Assembly: GCA_049605255.1 (NCBI GenBank)
Contig: JBMYUJ010000003.1
Coordinates: 5,063-69,062, forward strand
Origin: Magnetospiraceae bacterium
GTDB lineage: Bacteria > Pseudomonadota > Alphaproteobacteria > Rhodospirillales > JBMYUJ01
DNA length: 64,000 bases
Direction: 5' to 3'
Shown: positions 9,194 to 64,000 of the stretch, piece by piece
Layout of the letters: every line of letters starts with the position of its first letter
Numbering within the stretch: position 1 is the first letter of the stretch
Position numbers and translations under genes: made by a program
Notes under the pieces: generated by a model
Told to the model about the DNA's origin: nothing
Seen by the model: only the letters and a program-made list of their open reading frames with translations
The model's database searches: none

Positions 9194-12100
9194 GTGAAAA
9201 AATTTCTTATCGGTAGTTTCGCCCTTTTGATGGTCGCCGTCGCCGCGCTGCTCTCGGCGCCCCTGGTGATCGATTGGAGCGTCTATCGCGGCGATATCGA
9301 GCGAATCGTTTCCTTGTCCCTGGGGCGCGAGGTCTCAATTCAGGGATCTGTCAACGCCCGCCTGCTGCCGTATCCGGCCATGGAGGTGGGGGCGGTTACC
9401 GTTGAGTCCCTGGAGGGCGGTGCCGCGCCGTATTTTGCGCGAATCGATCGGGTTTCCTTTGAAGCCTCCTGGATGGCGTTTTTCCGCGGCGAATTACGTT
9501 TAACCTCCGTAACTTTGGGGGGAGCCCGGGTCCAGTTGGAGCGGCGCACAGATGGCGTGGGGAACTGGATTCTCACCGGGGCCTTGCCCGCCTTCGGAGA
9601 GTCGTTTCCCATTCGCGTGGATCAATTCCAAATTCAGTCGGGCACCCTCCGTTGGATCGATTCCGCTGGCGCCGTCGCGGCACAGCTGGAAGCCGTCGCG
9701 GGTCGGTTCACGGCGGATGCGGTGAACGGCCCTTTCCAGGGTCGCGGACAAGGGGAATACCGGGGCGTTCCCCTCAGCCTGGAACTGTCCATTGGACGCA
9801 TTGACTCAGATCGTCCGGCCTCTTTCTCGGCCCGCCTGGGTCTGAGTGGCGGCGCTGGTAGCGTACAGGTAGCAGGCACCCTCAGCGGCGATGACGCGGG
9901 TCCGACCTTGCGGGGTCAGGCCATCTTGGAAGCAACCAGCCTGGCAAAGCTTATGGGCGCGATTGAGGGGGGTGGCACCTTTCCCGGCGCATTGGATCAA
10001 CCCTTCAAGCTAGAAACGGCCTTCTTCACCGCCAGGCAGGAGATGGAACTGCCACAAATATCTTTGCTGTTGGGAAGCACCCGTTTCGATGGCGGCGGGG
10101 TTGTCAGTCTTTCCGACGAGGTGGCCGCGCAGATCTTCCTCGCGGTGAAGAATCTCAACCTGGATAGCTTGGCGGCGGCGCCGCCCATTCGGACCAAGGG
10201 CGCGGCGCTGGTGGTCGACGCGGCGCCACCCGCCGGTGCGGTGGCGACGGTCCCCCGAAAGCCCGGCGCCTCGCCCCTGGTGGCTTTGGCGCATTGGTTG
10301 GTGACCAAACCAGCCTTGTCGCTGACGGTGGATATCCGCGCCGACGCGCTTATCCTGGGCGGGGATGTGGTGCGCCAATCCCATATGAATTGGACGGTGG
10401 GCGCGGGCGGGATCACCCTCAACACGGCGACGGCGCTGTTGCCCGGCGGCACCTCGGCGACGTTGCAGGGGGTGGTGGCCCCATTCCTGGACCCCCCCGC
10501 ATTCACCGGCAGCGGTGGCATCGATATCGGCACGCCGCGCGGTTTCCTGCGTTGGTTGGGCATTGAGGTTCCGGCGGGCATTTCCCAAAGCCGCCTGCGG
10601 ACAGCGACTTTGACCGCGCAGATCGCCGCGACCTCAGCGGAAATCCGGCTGCAAAAATTGGCCATGCGGGTCGACACCACGGAGCTGCGGGGGGCGTTGA
10701 CCCTGGTGCCCGCCACCAGGCCCTCCGTTGGGGCCAACCTGCATTTGGATCATTTGGACCTCGACGGCTATGCCGGATCCGATGTGGCGGCGGATATCTT
10801 GCGGTCTTTCGCCGCTTTTGACGCCAATTTCAAACTGTCTACCGACGCGCTGTACTGGGGGGGTCGGCGATTCTCCGCCGTCGGCGCATCGGGCACATTG
10901 CAAAATGGCACATTGACCCTGTCCGACCTCACCGGCACGGACGGCGACACCCAGTATCGCATTGCGGGGGCGATTCAGGACTTGGGCGACACGCCCCGGG
11001 CGCAGGACCTCTCGGTGGTTATCACCGCCCAAGAACTGCGCACATTCCTATCGCAAGCGGGCTGGTCGGTGGGGGGCGCGCTCGGGCCTTTGGCCATTCA
11101 CGCGGTCCTGAATGGCGCCTTGGCGGCGCCGAAGGTGGAAGCCTTGGTCGAGCTCCTGGGTGGGAATATGGACCTTCAGGGCATTTTGCGCCCGGTGGGG
11201 GACGCGACGGGCCCGTCGGTCACTCTGGTGGCGCATTTTCCCAAAGCCTCGGCGTTTCTCCAACGTTTGGGGTGGGTCCATGACCCGGAACGGCTTCACG
11301 GCGCCCTGGACCTGACCGGATCGGCAACGATTCAGGCGTCGTCAATCACCCTGGCAAACTTGGAAGCCAAGGTCGCGGGCGGGGCCCTCAAGGGGCAATT
11401 TGACTTGCGGTTTTCCGGCTTGCGCCCGCAGGCTCGCGCGAAAATCACCGGAACAGGAATACGCTTGGATGCGTTCCTTCCTGCGCCCAGCGACACGGAA
11501 ACGGCGCCGGAAGATACCGATGGGGCGGCCACCTGGGCGACCATCCCCGTGGATTTTTCCATTCTCCGACGCATCGAGGGGCGGGCCGCGGTCGCTTTCG
11601 AAAATTCTCGTTTCCGCACCCATGCGGTGGAGCGCTTGGCCTTCGATGCCAGTCTCAATGCGGGGCGGTTGGATATCATCGGGCTGACCGGCGTTGTGGA
11701 TGGTGGAAAATTGCGCCTGGACGGGCATTTGGAAACCGCCACGGGGGCGGATTCCTATGCGGTCGACCTGGCCTATGAAAAAGGGTCTTTGGCAGCGATT
11801 TTTCCCGGGTCGGGAGACGGAGAGCTCTCCATGACTTTCAAGGCGACGGGGACCGGTGCGTCCGTGCGCCGCGCGGTGGCCTCATTGGCGGGAAATGGAA
11901 ACCTGCGCCTGACGGTGCGCAAACTTCCGCCAGAAACCCCCTTGCCCATGATGCCTGGGCTCGCGGCCATCTTGGAATGGTTGGGCGGCAGCGGGGCGGT
12001 TACGGCAGACCTGACCGCCACCGAGGGGCGCCTTTCTGCCGATCCGGTCACCGTGATCGGGGAGGCGGGGCGGGCAACGCTGTCCTATTCCCTCGACCCG

Positions 12101-54531: not shown

Positions 54532-55770
54532 ATGAATAACGAACGCAGCGAGAAAATCGAATTTCCAGGCGCGATGGGGAAGATGCTGGCGGCACGCCTG
54601 GACTTGCCCGCCGGGGAACCCCTGGCCTATGCCCTTTTTGCCCACTGCTTTACCTGTTCGAAGGAGATTTATGCGGCGGCGCGGGTCTCGGCGGCGCTCA
54701 CCGCCCATGGAATCGGTGTGCTGCGGTTCGATTTTACCGGGCTTGGCAGCTCGGAAGGGGAATTCGCCAATACCAACTTTACCTCCAACACCCAGGATAT
54801 CTTGCAAGCAGCGGCTTATCTGCGAGAGCATCACCAGGCGCCGAAAATCCTGATTGGCCATTCCTTTGGTGGGGCCGCCATGCTGGCGGTGGCCGGGCAA
54901 ATCGAGGAGGCCGTGGCGGTCGCCACCATCGGGGCGCCCAGCGACCCCGCGCATGTCACCCATCTGTTCGAGGGCAAATTGGAGGAAATCGAACAGCAAG
55001 GGTCCGCCCTGGTCCGATTGGCCGGGCGACCCTTCACGATCTCCCAGCAGTTCGTAGAGGATATCGCCGAGCAGAAAATGACCGAGGCCATTGGCGAGAT
55101 GCGCAAGGCCCTGCTGATTTTCCATGCGCCTTTGGACGGTATCGTGGGGGTGGAGAATGCCGCCCGTATTTTCCGGGCCGCGAAGCATCCCAAAAGCTTC
55201 GTGTCGCTGGATGATGCAGACCATCTGCTGTCCCGCCGGGTAGACGCGGAATATGTGGCGCAGGTGATTTCCAGTTGGGCCTCCCGCTATTTGGGCGAGG
55301 CGGCCAAAGCCCATCGGCCCCGGGTGGTTGCGGAAAACGGTTATGTGACCGTGGCGGAAACCGGCGAGGGCAAATTCGCCAACGCGGTGGCGGTGGGGGA
55401 AAAACATTATTTCCTGGCCGATGAACCCTTGGCGGCGGGGGGCACGGATACGGGGCCGGGGCCCTATGATTTCCTGATGGCGGGGCTGGGGTCCTGCACC
55501 GCCATGACCCTGCGCATGTATGCAGAGCATAAGGGTCTGCCCCTGGACCGGGTGACGGTGACCCTGCATCATGGCAAAATCCATGCGAAGGATTGCCGGG
55601 AATGTGAATCGACAACCGGGCGGGTGGATCGTATCGACCGGCAGATCAAAATCGAGGGGCCTGAATTGACCGACGCGGAGCGGGCGAGATTGTTGGAAAT
55701 CGCCGATAAATGCCCCGTGCATAAAACCCTGCATTCGGAGGTTCTGATCGTCACGGAAGCGGCGGAATAG
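54532..55770 (+). CDS. Bifunctional alpha/beta-hydrolase / OsmC-family protein
   Basis: The N-terminal hydrolase domain has the GHSFGG nucleophile elbow. The C-terminal OsmC/Ohr-like domain has GSCTAMT and CPVHKTL. Confidence 0.8.
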   Translation: MNNERSEKIEFPGAMGKMLAARLDLPAGEPLAYALFAHCFTCSKEIYAAARVSAALTAHGIGVLRFDFTGLGSSEGEFANTNFTSNTQDILQAAAYLREHHQAPKILIGHSFGGAAMLAVAGQIEEAVAVATIGAPSDPAHVTHLFEGKLEEIEQQGSALVRLAGRPFTISQQFVEDIAEQKMTEAIGEMRKALLIFHAPLDGIVGVENAARIFRAAKHPKSFVSLDDADHLLSRRVDAEYVAQVISSWASRYLGEAAKAHRPRVVAENGYVTVAETGEGKFANAVAVGEKHYFLADEPLAAGGTDTGPGPYDFLMAGLGSCTAMTLRMYAEHKGLPLDRVTVTLHHGKIHAKDCRECESTTGRVDRIDRQIKIEGPELTDAERARLLEIADKCPVHKTLHSEVLIVTEAAE

Positions 55771-56208
55771 GTGGTACGGCTCGGCCCCCGATCCACCTCG
55801 GGCGTGGTTTTCGCGCGGCTCGGCGTCGCATTGGCGGTGGGGCTCGCGCTGCTGATTGTGGGCATCCCGCCTTTGGTGCGGGGCGTCGCTGCCGTGGCCA
55901 CGGGTCAGAAGGCCAAGGCCCAGGTGGTGCGGGAGGGCGGCGCCCTTTATTACCGTCATGAACGGGGAGACGGTGCCGATACCCGCTATTACTTCATTCC
56001 GGCAGGCGGGATAGAACGCCCCTGGGATCATAAACCGGGGGATGCGGTTACGGTTTACGTCGACTCGGCAGACCCGACCCAAGGCATGCAGGGCGATGCA
56101 GTATCGCTGATTGCCGGGCCCGCGCTCATGGTGTTCTTGGGGCTGGCGGGGGTCTATTTCGGTGTTACTGGATTGGTGCAACGACGCAGAGAATTGCGGC
56201 GGTCATAA
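55771..56208 (+). CDS. DUF3592-like two-TM membrane protein
   Basis: The GTG start immediately abuts the preceding stop. The product has an N-terminal TM, a beta-rich middle region (PGDAVTVYVD) and a C-terminal TM. Confidence 0.55.
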   Translation: MVRLGPRSTSGVVFARLGVALAVGLALLIVGIPPLVRGVAAVATGQKAKAQVVREGGALYYRHERGDGADTRYYFIPAGGIERPWDHKPGDAVTVYVDSADPTQGMQGDAVSLIAGPALMVFLGLAGVYFGVTGLVQRRRELRRS

Positions 56209-56217
56209 ACCGGCGCC

Positions 56218-56850
56218 TCAACTTTCTCCTTCTTTCTTGGGCCAGAGTTTTTCCGCCAAAGCGATCGGGAACCAGCGGCAGAGATACACTTCCGTATCAT
56301 CAGGATAAACCTCGATCTCCACCGTCAGATCATCATCGTCGATGCCGGTAAGTTCATAATATTCGAAGGCTTCCCAGGATTTCCCCGTCCCGGATTTGAA
56401 CTTGGACCGCAGGCAATCCACGCTTTCCCGATATCCTTCCGGGTCGATCCAGGGCTGGAGCTCCTCGGCGATATTCTGCACCGGAATATCCTTGGTGTAG
56501 CCTTCGCCAAAGAGGCTGCCGAACGCTTCCATATCGAAAGTTGATTCCACCTCCCGGCGTTTTAGGCGACGCGACACCACGATCCCCGCCTCCCCATCGG
56601 ATCGGTCCACGCTGAACCCCAGGGTAATGCCCCGCCGGGTGATGATGAAGGAGGGCTCCGCACCATCGCCATAATCCACGGCGTTGGCTTCCTCCACCTT
56701 GAACAGGCCACCGCTGATGGCGGGCAGGGGCGCCTCGCCAAACTCCACGAAATCACCGACGGTTAATTCCTCCGGTTTGGTGAGGCTGCGTTTGGGCGGC
56801 GGCGGCGTCGATGGGCCGGGTTTTAATTTGTTGCGGATTTTGTCGAACAT
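56218..56850 (-). CDS. YjfK/DUF4178-like cytoplasmic protein (operon gene 6)
   Basis: The ATG at 56850 shares one base with the TGA of the upstream aminopropyltransferase gene. The 210-aa acidic protein has W.AFEYYEL...DDDLTVEIEV, which resembles DUF4178/DUF2491 signatures, but the assignment is tentative. The upstream 91 codons of the 301-aa ORF overlap the upstream gene and are rejected. Confidence 0.6.
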   Translation of the reverse strand: MFDKIRNKLKPGPSTPPPPKRSLTKPEELTVGDFVEFGEAPLPAISGGLFKVEEANAVDYGDGAEPSFIITRRGITLGFSVDRSDGEAGIVVSRRLKRREVESTFDMEAFGSLFGEGYTKDIPVQNIAEELQPWIDPEGYRESVDCLRSKFKSGTGKSWEAFEYYELTGIDDDDLTVEIEVYPDDTEVYLCRWFPIALAEKLWPKKEGES

Positions 56851-58619
56851 CAGTCTTCCTTTGTCTGCGTCGGCACCGGGCCCGCGCCGGTGACCTTGAT
56901 TTCCCGCTGCCCCCAGGCTTTTTGGTGCAGCAGATACATACGGTGGCTGCCCAGGGTGTTGGGCTCCAACCCCTCCGCCGCCGCCAGGAACCCTTCCGGG
57001 AATTCGTAGGCGGCCTTTAGGAAAGATTTTGTCGCCCAGAACCCGCTTGGCAAGGGGTGTGTGGACTCTGCCAGGCGCTGGCTGGCGGGCCGCCCCTGGG
57101 GCACCGCGATGGTCCAGCCCCATTCGCCGAAGCTGGGCACATTGGCATGGTAGCGCTCCACCGAGCCGAAACCGGCGGCCTCCAAAGTAACGCCGACGGT
57201 CAAAAAGGCATCCCGCGCGTGGTAGGGACTGGTGGATTGGATGGCGATGGCCCCATCCCCGGCCAGCGCCTGGCGCAGCTTGGCGTAGAACCGGGCGCTG
57301 TAAAGCTTGTTGAGGTTCGGGTGGCTGGGGTCGGGCAGATCGACGATGATGGTATCGAACCGTTTCCCCTCCCGCAAAATCTGATCAATGCTGTTATAGG
57401 CATCACCGAGAATGACCTGCACCCGCGGGTCCTTGAAGCTGCGGTTGGAAATCTCCAGCAAGCGTTCATTGATCACCCGCCCTTCTAGGGCCACGGGCTC
57501 GGAAAAAAGGCGGATCATCTGTTGATCCAGTTCCAGCACGGTCACCTGGTCCGGGTGCCAACGCAGAATATCCCGCACCGCCATGCCGTCGCCGCCGCCA
57601 ATCACGAGAATATCCTTGTTGCGGGCGGACGCCAGCAAGGGCGGGCCCACCAGCATGGCATGGTAGACCGCTTCATCACAGGTGCAGAATTGCAGCCGTC
57701 CATTCAAGAACAGGGAGAATTGGGCGGGCATGTCGGGCGCCGTGCGCCGTTCGGTCAGGGTGATATGTTGAAAATCCGTGCTCTTTGAAAAGATGACCCG
57801 GTCTTCATAGAGCAGGTTCTCCAGGGATTGCCGCCAATCGGCCACATTAAAGCTCAGGAACAGCAGAAACAGCCCGATGAGGCCATGGGCCCCGGCGAAG
57901 AGGCGGGGATGGCGCACATGACGCCAGCGCAGGATCAAGAAGGCCAAGCCGACGGTCAGATTCGCGGCGGCAACCCAGAGGGCCGCCCGCTCCGGCGGCA
58001 CGGCCAGTAAAATGGCGACGAAAATCGCCGCCCCAACCCCGGCGCCGATATAATCCAGCCCATAGACCGTACCCGTATTATGTTCCAAATGGGCCTGATA
58101 CAGCCGTTCGCGCACCCGGGCGATCAGGGGAATTTCCATGCCCACCCCGGCGCCCAGCACGAAGCCCGCCACATAGGGGAAGTATTTCGCCCATGTTTCC
58201 AGATGGTGGGACAGGCCACCATGGGGCACGGCATCGAAGGGCATGCCAAAATTGGCGGCGATCAGGCGCGGCAGCTCCGCAACGAAGGCAAACATGCCGG
58301 CAATCATCAAAACCGCCGTGGCGCCGATCAGGGCGATGGCCAGTTCCAAAACCACGAAGGCGGTTTCCGGGTCTTTCAGCCGCTTTGCGGCCAGGGCGCC
58401 CACCCCCATGGAGACAATCATCACCCCGATCATGGTGAAGATGGCATGTTCCATCAGGCCGATCACCCGGCCCGCGTAATGGGACAGCAAATATTCGTAG
58501 ATCAATCCGGCCCCGGCGAGGACCATCATGATCAGCAGGATGGCCGCATCCTTGAGGCGGGCCTTTTGCAGGTCTGTTCGATGCATGGAGGAGGCCGATA
58601 CGGGCGGAACGGGTCGCAT
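56850..58619 (-). CDS. Membrane-anchored polyamine aminopropyltransferase (spermidine/spermine synthase-like, paralog 2) (operon gene 5)
   Basis: The 589-aa product has about 7-8 N-terminal TM helices. The C-terminal SpeE fold has intact VIGGGDG, LELD and IIVDLPDPSHP..LYS..FY motifs. Confidence 0.8.
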   Translation of the reverse strand: MRPVPPVSASSMHRTDLQKARLKDAAILLIMMVLAGAGLIYEYLLSHYAGRVIGLMEHAIFTMIGVMIVSMGVGALAAKRLKDPETAFVVLELAIALIGATAVLMIAGMFAFVAELPRLIAANFGMPFDAVPHGGLSHHLETWAKYFPYVAGFVLGAGVGMEIPLIARVRERLYQAHLEHNTGTVYGLDYIGAGVGAAIFVAILLAVPPERAALWVAAANLTVGLAFLILRWRHVRHPRLFAGAHGLIGLFLLFLSFNVADWRQSLENLLYEDRVIFSKSTDFQHITLTERRTAPDMPAQFSLFLNGRLQFCTCDEAVYHAMLVGPPLLASARNKDILVIGGGDGMAVRDILRWHPDQVTVLELDQQMIRLFSEPVALEGRVINERLLEISNRSFKDPRVQVILGDAYNSIDQILREGKRFDTIIVDLPDPSHPNLNKLYSARFYAKLRQALAGDGAIAIQSTSPYHARDAFLTVGVTLEAAGFGSVERYHANVPSFGEWGWTIAVPQGRPASQRLAESTHPLPSGFWATKSFLKAAYEFPEGFLAAAEGLEPNTLGSHRMYLLHQKAWGQREIKVTGAGPVPTQTKED

Positions 58620-58642
58620 GCCCAGGCTGAGCGCCGATTACA

Positions 58643-59533
58643 TCAGCTATTCACCGCCAACATGGCAAGGCCGAGGGCGGTATAGACCGCCGCCTGCACG
58701 GCGCCGATGGCCACATTGCCCTGGCGATCCACCTCGTCTTGTAAATCGATGCCCCAGAGAAGAATCCGCTCCGCGATCATCGACAAGATCGCTAGCACCA
58801 TCAAGCTGACCACCGCCACCAGGATCCAAGACCCGAACACCCAGATCACCGCCGAGGGATCAAACGGGGCCAGATTGAGGGCGCTGGAGATGGCGAAGGC
58901 GGCGGCGATGCGATAGCCGCTGAAGCGCAGGGCGAGGGCCGTATTACCGCCCCGGATGGTTTCCATCAGCGGCGCCTGGCCGGTGCGCGAATGCAATTTG
59001 ATCCGGTAAAAGGAGACCAGGCTGAGCAGGGCTTGGCTGACCAAGAAGCTGCCCAGGCCGACCAAGGCTGTCACCAATCCGCCATCCTGCACCCAATCCA
59101 GCACCGCGCGCACGATCAGGGCGGTGGCGATGGCATTGCCCGCATCGGTCATGGCGACGGCGATATTTCCGGCGCGCAGTTCATCGCGCACCGCGAAGCT
59201 GGACATGGAAACCTTGTCGAACACCGCATGTGCGGCAAACACCATGGCCAATCCGGCAACGCCATAGGCGAGCACCAGGACGGCTTCGTTGGCTGGGGAC
59301 GCGGCGGCATCCCCCGCCAGCACACCGGTGAGCAATATCCCCATGGCGAACACCCCACCCGCCAACACGATCCCGAAGGCCGGATTATCTCGCTGCGCCA
59401 GTTCTTCCGATGGATTGACCCGCGCGACGGCGCCCATCATGAAGCGCATGGCCACCAAAAGGGCGGCGCCGATCACCAAATCAATGGCCAGGATCAGCAG
59501 ATAGTTGGCGTTTAAACCCATGTAAGACAACAT
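58643..59533 (-). CDS. Polytopic membrane protein with four DUF350 (YjfL)-type repeats (operon gene 4)
   Basis: The 296-aa product has four spaced repeats: QRDNPAFGIVLAGG, LRAGNIAVAMTDAG, IRGGNTALALRFSG and DRQGNVAIGAVQAA. Each repeat precedes a TM hairpin. An AGAGGGA SD precedes the start. Confidence 0.7.
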   Translation of the reverse strand: MLSYMGLNANYLLILAIDLVIGAALLVAMRFMMGAVARVNPSEELAQRDNPAFGIVLAGGVFAMGILLTGVLAGDAAASPANEAVLVLAYGVAGLAMVFAAHAVFDKVSMSSFAVRDELRAGNIAVAMTDAGNAIATALIVRAVLDWVQDGGLVTALVGLGSFLVSQALLSLVSFYRIKLHSRTGQAPLMETIRGGNTALALRFSGYRIAAAFAISSALNLAPFDPSAVIWVFGSWILVAVVSLMVLAILSMIAERILLWGIDLQDEVDRQGNVAIGAVQAAVYTALGLAMLAVNS

Positions 59534-59551
59534 TTCGCGATCCCTCTTTGA

Positions 59552-60526
59552 TTACTTGCCGCCGGAGCTGCCGCCGGACCGGGTCGAAGCCCGGTAGCTG
59601 CTGCTGGCGCTGTTGGAATATGAACTGCCGTAGGTGGACACGGTCCGTGGGCCGCTGGTGGCCGCTTGCGTGCTGGTCCGGCTAAACGGGGGCACGCCAG
59701 ACGCCGTGCGCCCGGCGCGGGGGGGTGGCGGAGGGGGCACGCTGGTATTGGTGCGTGTGGCAAAGGAGGAGGGCGTGCGCCCCGTCTGCTTGCCATATTG
59801 CTTGATAGACCCCCACGAAGAAGACATCCGCCCCACCTCGCTTTGCCGCCAAGTGGCACTGCCGTAGCGGTTTTGATACCGATCGTATCGATAAGACCAA
59901 GGCCGGTCATAATACCAGCCGGAATAGCTCCAGCGGCCCGGCCCCATGATGGGGGCATAGATCGGGTGCCAGTACCAATAGGTGGACCCGGAAGATGTTC
60001 GGGTCCATTGCCCGTAATGGGAATTTCCCACCAACCTGTCGCCCGGAAGGCCCACCTTGTCCTCCGGCACATCGAGGGGTTTAAGCGCGCCTTTGGTCAT
60101 GGCGGCGATGGTATTGATCTCATCGACCAGTCCCGCATCCACGTTCTTTTCCGTGGCGGCTTCGGTCAGCAGACGCATCCAGGTTACAGCTTGCGCCGAG
60201 TCGACGCGGTTCTGATTGACGTTCCGCAGGATGCGGTTACTGCGGGCCTGCAGGTCTTTCAGGATCGGATTTCTGGTTTTTGTGCCCGCGGCGGCCAACC
60301 AATCAATATCCTTCGCCCGGTCGGGCAGGAGTTCTTTTGCCTTGGTCGCGTATTCCGTCAGCTTTTTGTCATAGGGCAGAACGTCCTGATCCAGCTTGTC
60401 GCCAACGGCCACGATGTCTTTGTTGAGTTCGGCGGAGAGCTGCTTGATCTCATCAATATTCGGGTCCGAACAGGCGGTTGTGACCAAAAGCGCCAACGCC
60501 GCCACAATCGGGGATGTCCATCGCAT
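59552..60526 (-). CDS. Lipoprotein with helical N-domain and Trp/Tyr/Ser/Arg-rich, poly-Pro C-terminal region (operon gene 3)
   Basis: The ATG at 60526 follows an AGGAGG SD and gives MRWTSPIVAALALLVTTAC (lipobox). The C-terminal half has YWYWHPIY, GWYYDRPWSYRYDRYQNRY and PPPPPP, followed by a Ser-rich tail ending RSGGSSGGK. The composition is reminiscent of YjfM/DUF1190, but the assignment is tentative. Confidence 0.6.
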   Translation of the reverse strand: MRWTSPIVAALALLVTTACSDPNIDEIKQLSAELNKDIVAVGDKLDQDVLPYDKKLTEYATKAKELLPDRAKDIDWLAAAGTKTRNPILKDLQARSNRILRNVNQNRVDSAQAVTWMRLLTEAATEKNVDAGLVDEINTIAAMTKGALKPLDVPEDKVGLPGDRLVGNSHYGQWTRTSSGSTYWYWHPIYAPIMGPGRWSYSGWYYDRPWSYRYDRYQNRYGSATWRQSEVGRMSSSWGSIKQYGKQTGRTPSSFATRTNTSVPPPPPPRAGRTASGVPPFSRTSTQAATSGPRTVSTYGSSYSNSASSSYRASTRSGGSSGGK

Positions 60527-60557
60527 AGGGTTCCGTCCTCCTGGGTCGCGCTGTGTA

Positions 60558-61655
60558 TTAGGCACCGGCTAACCCCTGTTCCGTTTCCCGAAAGGCGGCG
60601 AAGGCGGTTTCCGGCACCAGGATGTAGATCGCTTGCGCGTCCACCCGGTCTGATCCTTTCAAATCGGCCCGTACCGAGCCGTCGGCGCATTCGATGGCGA
60701 TGGGGGTGCCAAGATCACGCCCGACCAGATCGCCCACCACCTCGGCCCAAGATGTGTTCTTGAACGGCATGGCAAGACGCATGCATTCCTCGCCGTTGGA
60801 ATCCCACAGGGCCTCGATGATCTGTTCGGCGCCCGGCGAGATGATGGCCCGCACCAGCAATTCCGGATAGGCCCGGATCGGCTTGATCACGGAATGCACG
60901 CCAAGAGTCTCCAACCGGGTCCGGATCTGCGGATCATAGGTTTCCGCCAGAATGCGCCGGTCGCCGGAAACCCCTTGCGACATCAATTGATGGCAGACAT
61001 CAAACACCAGGCTATCGGAATGGGTCGCGTCATCGACAGACAAGACCGCCACCGTATGGGCGGCCCGCACATTGGCCCTGTCCAGCACCGCCATATCGTT
61101 GGGCGCGCCGCCCACCAGCTTCACCCCGCGTGATACCAAACCGGGGGGCAGGCCCTCGGGCAACTGATCGCTGACCACGATGACGGGACGGTCTCGGTGG
61201 TCGGTATGCGAACTGGAGAGTTCGCCCAACACCTGCACGAAATAGCGTTCGCCGTTGGTGCCGGGGAAGTTGATAAAGACGATATGGTCTTCCATACGCA
61301 CCCTCACATGGCCTCTTCTTTTGCGGTCGCGCCGATCAATCACAAATTCGACAATGAGGCTCGTGATGTAGCCTACGGCGGGGATTGCGGGGATGTAAAT
61401 AAAAAGAACGGTGATGATCCGGCCCAGGCCGCTTCCCGGCGCGAGGTCGCCAAACCCCACCGTGGTGCCGGCGGTGGCTGTGAACCAGAGGGCATCGTCA
61501 AAGGTCCAGCCCTCTACCTCCGAGATCAGCAGTGCGTGCAACACCGCAATCATCAGGAGCAGGATCAACACCATGACCGCATCGCGCATGGGATTGCCAA
61601 TAATCCCCGCGCGCCGCATCCGGCTCAGTCCCTTGAGGAGTTTAAAGATGATCAA
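60558..61655 (-). CDS. Two-TM potassium channel with C-terminal RCK/TrkA-like domain (operon gene 2)
   Basis: The product has the selectivity filter TVGFGD flanked by two TM helices. The cytoplasmic domain begins HIVFINFPGTNGERY, so it has an RCK-like topology without a canonical GxGxxG. The start is a TTG at 61655, or a downstream ATG. Confidence 0.8.
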   Translation of the reverse strand: MIIFKLLKGLSRMRRAGIIGNPMRDAVMVLILLLMIAVLHALLISEVEGWTFDDALWFTATAGTTVGFGDLAPGSGLGRIITVLFIYIPAIPAVGYITSLIVEFVIDRRDRKRRGHVRVRMEDHIVFINFPGTNGERYFVQVLGELSSSHTDHRDRPVIVVSDQLPEGLPPGLVSRGVKLVGGAPNDMAVLDRANVRAAHTVAVLSVDDATHSDSLVFDVCHQLMSQGVSGDRRILAETYDPQIRTRLETLGVHSVIKPIRAYPELLVRAIISPGAEQIIEALWDSNGEECMRLAMPFKNTSWAEVVGDLVGRDLGTPIAIECADGSVRADLKGSDRVDAQAIYILVPETAFAAFRETEQGLAGA

Positions 61656-61720
61656 TGGTCGCCCCCATCTAGCCTATTCAGCCAAGGTTGGCGGCGGAAA
61701 TCAAGGTTGCATATGGTGAA

Positions 61721-61966
61721 TTATTTGTCGCCACCGGCGGCGGTATCGATGCGGCCCAATTGATCGGGCGACAAATCACCGTAGCCGGGCAGGGTGACAT
61801 CCTGTGCTAAAACAGCCTGGTTCGGCGTCGTCCCGTGCCCCGTTTCTTCGGTCAGAATGCTGGTAAACGCCACTATCAGGACCGCAAAACCCGCGCCCAC
61901 TAAAAGCAAATCCGTGGTAAAACCCCGCCTCCCGCTCTGGCGCGGCGCTTCCAAATCTTCCGTCAT
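61721..61966 (-). CDS. Small single-TM protein (operon gene 1)
   Basis: The 81-aa product has a basic N-terminus and one TM helix (DLLLVGAGFAVLIVAFTSIL). It starts at an ATG and lies 65 nt upstream of the channel gene on the same strand. I recognise no family. Confidence 0.4.
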   Translation of the reverse strand: MTEDLEAPRQSGRRGFTTDLLLVGAGFAVLIVAFTSILTEETGHGTTPNQAVLAQDVTLPGYGDLSPDQLGRIDTAAGGDK

Positions 61967-62061
61967 CCCTCGACCATTTAATCGATTCTACCGATATCTT
62001 ACCTGAGAATGCCGGTCAAAGAGCCAAAAAAGAGTTAATCCCAGGCCAGGGCTGGTATGGA

Positions 62062-63446: not shown

Positions 63447-64000
63447 TCATGCGGCATGGATTGATGCCAGATAGGCCTCCGCATCCCGCAGCAAAGCGGT
63501 AACCATAGGGTCATCGATGCCCAAAATGGAAAATTTATGCGCGATATTGCGCAGATATTCCATGCTGGTGCCGAGAATACCAGTCCCGGTCGCCAGGCAT
63601 TTGATCTGCTCCTCACGCGTAATATTGGCGTCGATGAGTTCCGTATCGTGATCGGCGACGAAGGTAAGCGCCTGCACATATTCGCCGCCGATGTCGGTGG
63701 AGATGAACTTCGGGAGATAACACGGGCCCAGCAATTCCCGTTGCCACAGAATATAGGTCTCCTGGTCAACCGCGCTCTGGTGGATACGGAATGCGAGGCC
63801 ATCGCATCCCGGACCTCGATCCAAGGCTGCCATCAGGCCCGGCGTTTCCCGGGTGCCACGACCACCGAAAATGTCCTTTAGGATGAAAAGCCGAGCGTAA
63901 TCCGGCGCGTGAGCGCGCCGTACATCGGTAAATTTGATCGCCGGATCCCACATCAAGGAACCATAAGCAAAGACCCAAAGGTCTCCTTCTGGGCGACCGC
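63447..64000 (-). CDS. chaC: ChaC-family gamma-glutamylcyclotransferase (5' end outside window)
   Basis: The reading frame is open to the window edge (...WVFAYGSLMWDP...). The product has the YGSLMW and G.RE.PGL motifs of the ChaC family. Confidence 0.8.
   Translation of the reverse strand, partial: GRPEGDLWVFAYGSLMWDPAIKFTDVRRAHAPDYARLFILKDIFGGRGTRETPGLMAALDRGPGCDGLAFRIHQSAVDQETYILWQRELLGPCYLPKFISTDIGGEYVQALTFVADHDTELIDANITREEQIKCLATGTGILGTSMEYLRNIAHKFSILGIDDPMVTALLRDAEAYLASIHAA

Follow-up and report, generated by a model that had tools for sequence, protein, structure and literature searches.

In a 64-kb window of a Magnetospiraceae metagenome-assembled genome (MAG), the whole stretch of DNA analysed here, the minus strand carries between positions 56218 and 61966 six consecutive co-directional open reading frames (ORFs), seen both in the ORF map and by reading the sequence, which we call g1 to g6 in the order of their transcription. 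The locus, in our view, quite probably derives from an envelope operon conserved among Proteobacteria; in this one lineage the operon would have lost its genes for PspA, a DUF2170 protein and a ribbon-helix-helix (RHH) protein, and its core would work without them. As far as sequence comparison can tell, this core is a conserved module of a seven-transmembrane (7-TM) domain fused to an aminopropyltransferase (g5), a double-DUF350 protein (g4), a lipoprotein (g3), a DUF4178-like protein (g6) and, usually, an MthK-type, RCK-gated K+ channel (g2). The system itself is already known from comparative genomics; what the window holds is a rare form of it, carried by an uncultured organism.

We fetched 80 species-representative loci with the alignment of g5 and labelled every ORF in them with profiles made from the proteins of the window and of the related locus L003, writing K for the K+ channel, L for the lipoprotein, D for the DUF350 protein, S for the SpeE fusion, I for DUF2170, P for PspA, 6 for the g6 family and R for a 98-aa RHH-like gene. 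The architectures recovered include L-D-S-I-P-6-R-K (17 loci), S-I-P-6-R-K-L-D (16), L-D-S-I-P-6-R (10), L-D-S-I-P-6-K (8) and K-L-D-S-I-P-6-R (7), and their carriers span Alpha-, Gamma- and Zetaproteobacteria as well as Nitrospirota. Only the 47 loci whose flanks reach 8 kb or more in each direction were counted. DUF2170, PspA and the g6 family are each present in 42 of them, with S, I, P and 6 in that order; the lipoprotein and DUF350 genes are each found in 41, always adjoining, the K+ channel in 35 and the RHH-like gene, which gives a weak FitA-like RHH match, in 33. In the remaining five loci the enzyme stands alone, in some of them preceded by speD. With 42 of the 47 related genomes showing these genes together, the arrangement lies far beyond chance. 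Within the 42 PspA-containing operons the channel is co-directional inside the cluster in 35 and R is present in 33. The pspA gene stands immediately before the g6 homologue in every locus that carries one, with the window as the sole exception, and in the relatives the two are coupled by an overlap of 0-4 nt or a gap of at most 10 nt.

The nearest relatives of g5 (57-60% identity) all lie in K-L-D-S-I-P-6-R operons; in two alphaproteobacterial MAGs the series reads K+ channel, lipoprotein, DUF350, SpeE fusion, DUF2170, PspA_IM30, a 205-aa gene without a Pfam family and a 98-aa gene. The window keeps the K-L-D-S order of these nearest relatives and is short of exactly I, P and R. Protein similarity and gene order alike make it an orthologous and syntenic counterpart of the K-L-D-S-I-P-6-R operons in related Alphaproteobacteria. 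At the site of the DUF2170 and pspA genes in relatives, g5 runs into g6 through a TGATG stop/start overlap (56848-56852, minus strand) in which stop and start share 1 nt, and g6 is coupled to g5 here as it is to pspA in the relatives; among the surveyed loci only the window has the g6 gene without P and directly after the enzyme (1/48). By tblastn and profile searches, none of PspA, DUF2170, the RHH gene and the ATP-grasp ligase YjfC of Escherichia coli was found in the 64-kb window. The retained genes bear no sign of decay, all five being full length and g6 keeping every family-invariant residue; the identity of g6 to its two nearest clades is 39% and 37%, against 36% between these clades, and the same pattern holds for the other four proteins. 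The simplest reading of this arrangement would be that I, P and R were lost in this lineage.

The closest published counterpart is the "second major group" of Ravi et al. (2024, mSystems; PMC11237479), which joins a CesT/Tir (DUF2170)-PspA operon to a 7TM-spermidine-synthase-like fusion (Shewanella oneidensis AAN56744-AAN56747) and whose parts besides the fusion are a DUF350 protein with eight TM segments, a lipoprotein described as novel, a DUF4178 protein and, in some cases, an RHH gene. The window resembles this group in its 7TM-PABS fusion, its 8-TM DUF350 protein, its dedicated lipoprotein family and its DUF4178-like protein; the Shewanella loci have the order L-D-S-I-P-6-R-K, with enzymes 49-52% identical to g5, and the Shewanella protein of the g6 type is labelled DUF4178 by Ravi et al. 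(PMC11237479). Unlike the group, the window is without the DUF2170-PspA dyad, which defines the group as a phage-shock-protein system, and without the optional RHH gene. The third group of the same authors, of the E. coli yjf type, comprises an ATP-grasp ligase, a 4-TM DUF350 protein, DUF1190, DUF2491 and a K+ channel (PMC11237479). E. coli yjfIJKLMC and the other ATP-grasp operons have in common with the window a DUF350 protein, a lipoprotein whose tail is of low complexity, a small cytoplasmic protein and a polyamine-related enzyme; some species also have a ligand-gated K+ channel there, and variants without PspA are known from this type too. In the published description, both PspA-less variants and the K+ channel are mentioned for the ATP-grasp type only and not for the SpeE-fusion group (PMC11237479). 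On the other hand, the yjf enzyme is the GspS-like ATP-grasp ligase YjfC and that of the window an aminopropyltransferase, YjfL has one DUF350 unit where g4 has two, and YjfK (DUF2491) and YjfM (DUF1190) are not detectably related to g6 or g3. The E. coli MG1655 yjfC gene (L002, 10029-11192) carries the RefSeq name "peptide--spermidine ligase"; our literature search for YjfC did not turn up the study behind this name.

Another member of the wider family of YjfI/YjfJ-centred envelope operons, to which the window also belongs, is the bac cluster of Pseudomonas aeruginosa, in which BacA is a DUF2170 protein and BacB is PspA-like (PMC10948618). It is the only one with reported phenotypes, namely biofilm, rhamnolipid and osmotic induction, and it contains no spermidine-synthase-like gene; its authors state that there are no experimental data for the spermidine-synthase-type operon (PMC10948618). 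The DUF2170 and PspA genes that define bac were not found in the window.

An earlier sequence-only reading of this DNA had seen in the locus a PspA-less member of a PspA-associated polyamine/membrane neighbourhood, and this was borne out, with PspA in 42 of the 47 relatives and none in the 64 kb. It had taken yjfIJKLMC as its reference system, and there it went astray, as the true relatives are the SpeE-fusion operons, a separate group in PMC11237479; profile searches matched DUF350, Spermine_synth and Ion_trans_2 and not DUF1190 or DUF2491. It had also regarded the K+ channel as recruited. Channel, DUF350 and SpeE-fusion genes do co-occur in the survey, and since K is present in 35 of 42 SpeE-type operons, and holds the same K-L-D-S place in the nearest ones, it belongs to the usual equipment of the operon rather than having been recruited here.

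The enzyme of the module, g5 (56850-58619, minus strand), matches NCBIfam NF002956/PRK03612, "polyamine aminopropyltransferase", with 554.6 bits against a cutoff of 472, and the Pfam family Spermine_synth with an E-value of 2.6e-33. Seven hydrophobic segments occupy its N-terminal half, ahead of the PABS domain, and its C-terminal half aligns to solved spermidine synthases, with the GGGDG motif, the DxxDP acidic pair (D-L-P-D-P) and the Y-H motif intact; GGGDG, D427/D430, Y319, Q284 and D315/E316 are invariant in the family. From this alignment, the active site is of the type that uses decarboxylated S-adenosylmethionine (dcSAM) and is intact, including the acidic residues that hold the protonated amine acceptor. 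The membrane domain (57825-58619), with a mean column identity of 61% and invariant His, Arg, Glu, Asp and Asn residues, is by this measure conserved beyond the needs of a simple anchor; a PDB sequence search with its profile found no relative. Homologues of g5 number in the thousands, the nearest being only 57-60% identical, and an exact-sequence look-up of g5 returned no contig.

The topology of g5 is less straightforward. In the mean of 32 sequences the loops rich in Lys and Arg are the N-tail and those between TM2-3, TM4-5 and TM6-7, which together hold 11.2 positive residues, the opposite side having 3.3. Taken together with exactly seven TM helices, this charge bias would have the catalytic domain face the periplasm. 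The TM3-4 loop, 35 residues long, conserved and rich in Pro and Gly, may conceal an eighth membrane pass; otherwise the topology would be unconventional.

Fusions of this kind have reportedly also been met from the side of polyamine biochemistry. Li, Kurihara, Kim, Liang and Michael are said to have described in 2019 a membrane-protein/SpdSyn-like fusion linked to S-adenosylmethionine decarboxylase (AdoMetDC), which reportedly fails to complement an E. coli speE deletion and comes from hosts without spermidine in which SpeD is active. That fusion resembles g5 in belonging to the same protein family and in having a DUF350 neighbour. Unlike those systems, the window shows no speD within its 64 kb, and the negative complementation and spermidine results come from other species and are only assumed to extend to the window. 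The sequence-only reading had held that no component had an experimentally defined role, which is nearly correct, except that the system has been described and partly tested in the literature.

Under the model that we favour, the fusion enzyme, working at or in the inner membrane, would transfer aminopropyl groups from dcSAM to a membrane-associated or translocated amine that is not free putrescine, and its strongly conserved membrane domain would bind or conduct either this acceptor or what is made from it. The same machine would have the DUF350 protein and the lipoprotein as its membrane and periplasmic side, g6 would be a cytoplasmic adaptor that connects to PspA in the relatives, and the K+ channel would tie the module to membrane potential, K+ flux or turgor. 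In the lineage of the window, the core would work without a dedicated PspA membrane-repair arm and without a regulator of its own. A role in monitoring polyamines, or in the "aminopropylation of other substrates", has been proposed for this group, with reference to Li et al. (2019) (PMC11237479).

Several points weigh against this picture. The window covers 64 kb of an 85-kb MAG contig, so that a pspA/yjfI pair, an RHH regulator and speD could be encoded in parts of the genome outside it. The variant was seen only once, and the searched databases hold no closer relative that would speak for its stable inheritance. As regards the enzyme, the charge bias with seven helices implies a periplasmic catalytic domain, which clashes with a cytoplasmic reaction dependent on dcSAM, and the supply of dcSAM would have to come without a speD in the 64-kb window. 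It is possible, although we consider it rather unlikely, that the DUF2170-PspA pair, perhaps with the RHH protein and SpeD, has moved elsewhere in the genome and serves the cluster in trans: only part of the genome is in view, Ravi et al. suggested trans-recruitment of PspA for other abbreviated operons (PMC11237479), and the full conservation of g6, which is normally coupled to PspA, fits a PspA partner elsewhere. Against this, nothing PspA-like lies within the 64 kb, and such a relocation would be unprecedented, because all 42 related operons keep the dyad strictly between S and 6. That the locus is instead a decaying remnant, or an artefact of assembly or binning with a chimeric junction, could be argued from its unique architecture (1/48), from its source in a MAG and from the C-terminus of g5, which is 8-10 residues longer than in the nearest homologues; yet we find this hardly credible, as none of the five genes is shortened or has lost an invariant residue, their divergence is not accelerated, the junction is a clean translational-coupling overlap without truncation, and base composition is even over the cluster region and uniform through the junction.

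The remaining alternatives concern what the cluster is rather than how it arose. NCBI's naming would make g5 an ordinary spermidine/polyamine synthase for bulk synthesis among functionally unrelated membrane genes, and it has on its side an above-cutoff match to an NCBIfam "equivalog" and intact catalytic and acceptor-binding Asp residues. This too seems most improbable to us, given that the neighbours are kept with the enzyme in 41-42 of 47 genomes over Alpha-, Gamma- and Zetaproteobacteria and Nitrospirota, that the membrane domain is highly conserved and that fusions of this kind reportedly failed to complement a speE deletion (Li et al., 2019). As for the yjf operons, the cluster has no ATP-grasp, DUF2491 or DUF1190 homologue and is on this comparison not a variant of yjfIJKLMC. 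The view that it is one, with the polyamine enzyme swapped for SpeE and a K+ channel newly recruited, can point to the DUF350 protein, the lipoprotein with its Ser/Gly/Tyr-rich tail and the small cytoplasmic protein that both share, to the treatment of the two operon types as related groups by Ravi et al., and to their naming the channel for the ATP-grasp type only. It remains improbable, however, since g6 shows no similarity to YjfK (BLASTP, best E-value 1.5), g3 matches YjfM only in its low-complexity tail (E-value 1.4) with DUF1190 matched by none of 33 g3 homologues, YjfC was not found in the window (tblastn, nothing better than an E-value of 6.7), and the channel already belongs to 35 of 42 SpeE-type operons and stands at the same position in the nearest relatives.

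The protein g6 (56218-56850, minus strand) is a 210-aa acidic cytoplasmic protein with 41 acidic and 26 basic residues and no TM segment. It is 39% identical to the gene that follows pspA in L003 (E-value 1e-52) and matches the family profile with an E-value of 4e-54, and it has no match in Pfam or NCBIfam, even at an E-value of 10. Among its 86 homologues, 33 match PF13785 (DUF4178) at an E-value of 0.01 or lower, the best at 1.9e-7, with the window protein itself unmatched; ten homologues scanned singly reach 19-22 bits, under the cutoff of 25, and align over profile positions 7-131 of 136 with one insertion. As g6 is connected to DUF4178 only via its homologues, the homology is transitive, and on these alignments the g6 family is best described as a divergent DUF4178 branch. 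DUF2491 was matched by none of the g6 homologues scanned, in sets of 36 and 86. A search of 1.84 billion representative proteins with g6 yielded 116 clusters, the best 53% identical; this closest relative, P0123, sits on a 1.8-kb contig. The exact-sequence look-up of g6 returned a 1.8-kb Logan contig only, a word-indexed homologue search found g6 alone, and a metagenome scan with g6 and P0123 found no relative. AlphaFold2 (AF2) confidently models g6 as mostly beta strands with few short helices, with a predicted local distance difference test (pLDDT) of 94.4 and a predicted TM-score (pTM) of 0.87 on the alignment of representative matches, as compared to a pLDDT of 34 from the single sequence. 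Foldseek of this model against the PDB gave no match (best E-value 0.13, TM-score <0.25), and neither did the family profile against PDB sequences. Elsewhere in the family, the g6-like domain is N-terminal in 400-570-aa proteins with extensions that have no Pfam family (some of P0166, P0175, P0194, P0196, P0205, P0214, P0230, P0237 and P0137), and one representative places it after an RDD membrane domain.

The lipoprotein g3 (59552-60526, minus strand; ATG at 60526, with an alternative GTG at 60565) is helical in its N-terminal half, bears the aromatic-rich motif LVGNxxYGxW...YSYY and closes with a tail rich in Ser, Thr and Arg whose last residues are Gly-Lys. It is 37% identical to the gene at the same position in L003 (E-value 2e-63), and its profile matches the lipoprotein gene of such operons with an E-value of 6e-81, a gene present in 41 of 47 loci. 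The lipobox Cys19 is invariant in the family alignment, with Gly or Ser as the next residue, and the tail (59552-59800 in the window, and in the homologues from L003 to L087) is disordered, with about 27% Ser, 13% Arg and 9% Lys. The Gly-Lys C-terminus is found in 65 of 65 distinct homologues, as RGK in 31, GGK in 18 and SGK in 16; by analogy with Lpp, this terminal Lys could be a peptidoglycan-attachment lysine, or it could be an amine acceptor. The protein has no Pfam family, a word-indexed homologue search with it found only g3 itself, and none of the 33 homologues scanned matched DUF1190. Weak EAGR_box matches in 7 of these 33 were dismissed as aromatic/glycine composition. We equate g3 by homology with the Ctha_1186-type lipoprotein, a name which cannot itself be checked, as Pfam has no model for Ctha_1186. 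The adjoining g4 (58643-59533, minus strand; 296 aa) matches PF03994 (DUF350) with an E-value of 9.7e-33 in two stretches, each of which covers the whole profile, corresponding to two units of the size of YjfL and an expected eight TM helices.

The channel g2 (60558-61655, minus strand) starts at a TTG, which is backed by a 47%-identical orthologue that aligns from residue 3 and by the same start in the NCBI call. It has two TM segments with a TVGFGD filter and matches Ion_trans_2 in the Pfam profile search with an E-value of 1e-11, and it aligns in full length to the Ca2+-gated channel MthK of Methanothermobacter (PDB 1lnq and others) with an E-value of 2e-11, the alignment running through the RCK domain; its identity to the L003 channel is 47% (E-value 1e-117). 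By this alignment it would share the MthK architecture of a 2-TM pore and a single cytoplasmic RCK-like domain. Unlike MthK, whose filter reads TVGYGD, it scores under the Pfam cut-offs in its RCK domain (Slo-like_RCK 20.2 bits against 24, TrkA_N 20.5 against 23.8), and its gene is embedded in a polyamine/PspA-type operon.

At the head of the cluster, g1 (61721-61966, minus strand; hypothetical protein ACPGO3_01500 at NCBI) is an 81-aa ORF with a single TM helix predicted from hydropathy and an acidic tail. It has no homologue in the 86 related loci and no Pfam or NCBIfam match, and its GC content at third codon positions is 0.66, as compared to 0.69-0.79 in the neighbouring genes. Its membership of the system is doubtful on these grounds and, since g1 is without a homologue, the conserved unit is one of five genes and not six. 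A promoter-like hexamer pair lies inside the 3' end of g1 (61749-61720); such sites are no commoner than chance.

The junctions between the genes are short, with spacers of 65 nt from g1 to g2, 31 nt from g2 to the ATG of g3 (or an 8-nt overlap from its GTG), 18 nt from g3 to g4 and 23 nt from g4 to g5, and the NCBI gene calls agree with the ORFs. Upstream, 95 intergenic nt (61967-62061) that follow a co-directional CopD-like gene are the likely boundary of the unit; its downstream limit is a convergent gene that ends at 56208. A promoter/terminator scan of the cluster region gave no signal above chance, an Rfam scan no match and a repeat search nothing above chance. The wider flanks hold unrelated housekeeping genes (ParA-like, ChaC, alpha/beta-hydrolase-OsmC, NUDIX and a pyridoxal-phosphate enzyme). 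Just downstream, on the opposite strand, an alpha/beta-hydrolase and an OsmC-like domain are fused in one 412-aa protein (54532-55770). ChaC-like genes were noted near two clusters, about 1.5 kb upstream in the window (63447-63956) and about 3 kb downstream in L007, a further alphaproteobacterial MAG (10541-11101), probably by coincidence. With regard to the sequence-only reading, its six co-directional minus-strand genes with these junctions were confirmed from the sequence, and its identifications of a K+ channel, a lipoprotein, a DUF350 protein and a membrane-tethered aminopropyltransferase with intact motifs all held up. Its description of g6 as YjfK/DUF4178-like stands for DUF4178, by way of the homologues, and falls for YjfK/DUF2491, and its inclusion of g1 in the system found no support among the related loci.

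Some of the surveyed loci depart from the common pattern in other ways. In L016, L029, L041, L051, L060, L064 and L076, a fusion enzyme (48-54% identity) is found without partner genes in the fetched flanks (3.6-10 kb per side), and in L060 and L064 speD stands ahead of it. A SpeD (AdoMet_dc) gene lies in or beside the cluster in 15 loci (L060, L064, L032, L072, L061, L044, L050, L042, L066, L070, L014, L015, L026, L008 and L011), with an E-value of 1.8e-31 for the one in L060 (9557-9988), and in the zetaproteobacterial L014 a Peptidase_M50B-like gene follows speD. In L069 (509-5058), a Pseudomonadales MAG, the place of DUF2170, PspA and g6 behind L, D and S is taken by a gene that overlaps the preceding one by 4 nt and encodes a 233-aa protein without a Pfam family but with an N-terminal TM helix; by its gene content, this locus may represent another, second type of operon without PspA.

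Operons of this family occur widely among marine and sediment Proteobacteria and bring together three poorly connected themes, polyamine-type chemistry, PspA/ESCRT-III membrane repair and K+ channels. From our survey, the K+ channel can be added to the regular complement of the SpeE-type operon, a point absent from the published description. What gets aminopropylated is no more testable here than in the operons of cultured Shewanella, Thalassotalea and Pseudoalteromonas. A long shot, and a very improbable one, is that the acceptor is not a small polyamine but an envelope macromolecule, most provocatively the operon's own lipoprotein, an idea suggested by the Ser/Arg/Lys-rich, silaffin-like tail, by the Gly-Lys end in all 65 homologues and by the positive-inside charge bias of the 7-TM domain, which puts the catalytic domain on the periplasmic side. 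If this were true, it would be a bacterial system that aminopropylates a protein or lipid on the envelope side, with the membrane domain delivering dcSAM, and PspA would be an optional repair accessory, dispensable at this locus. The locus of the window may be seen as a natural experiment, in which the five-gene core persists intact without the PspA/DUF2170 arm; PspA would therefore be an accessory to the core and not the core's purpose.

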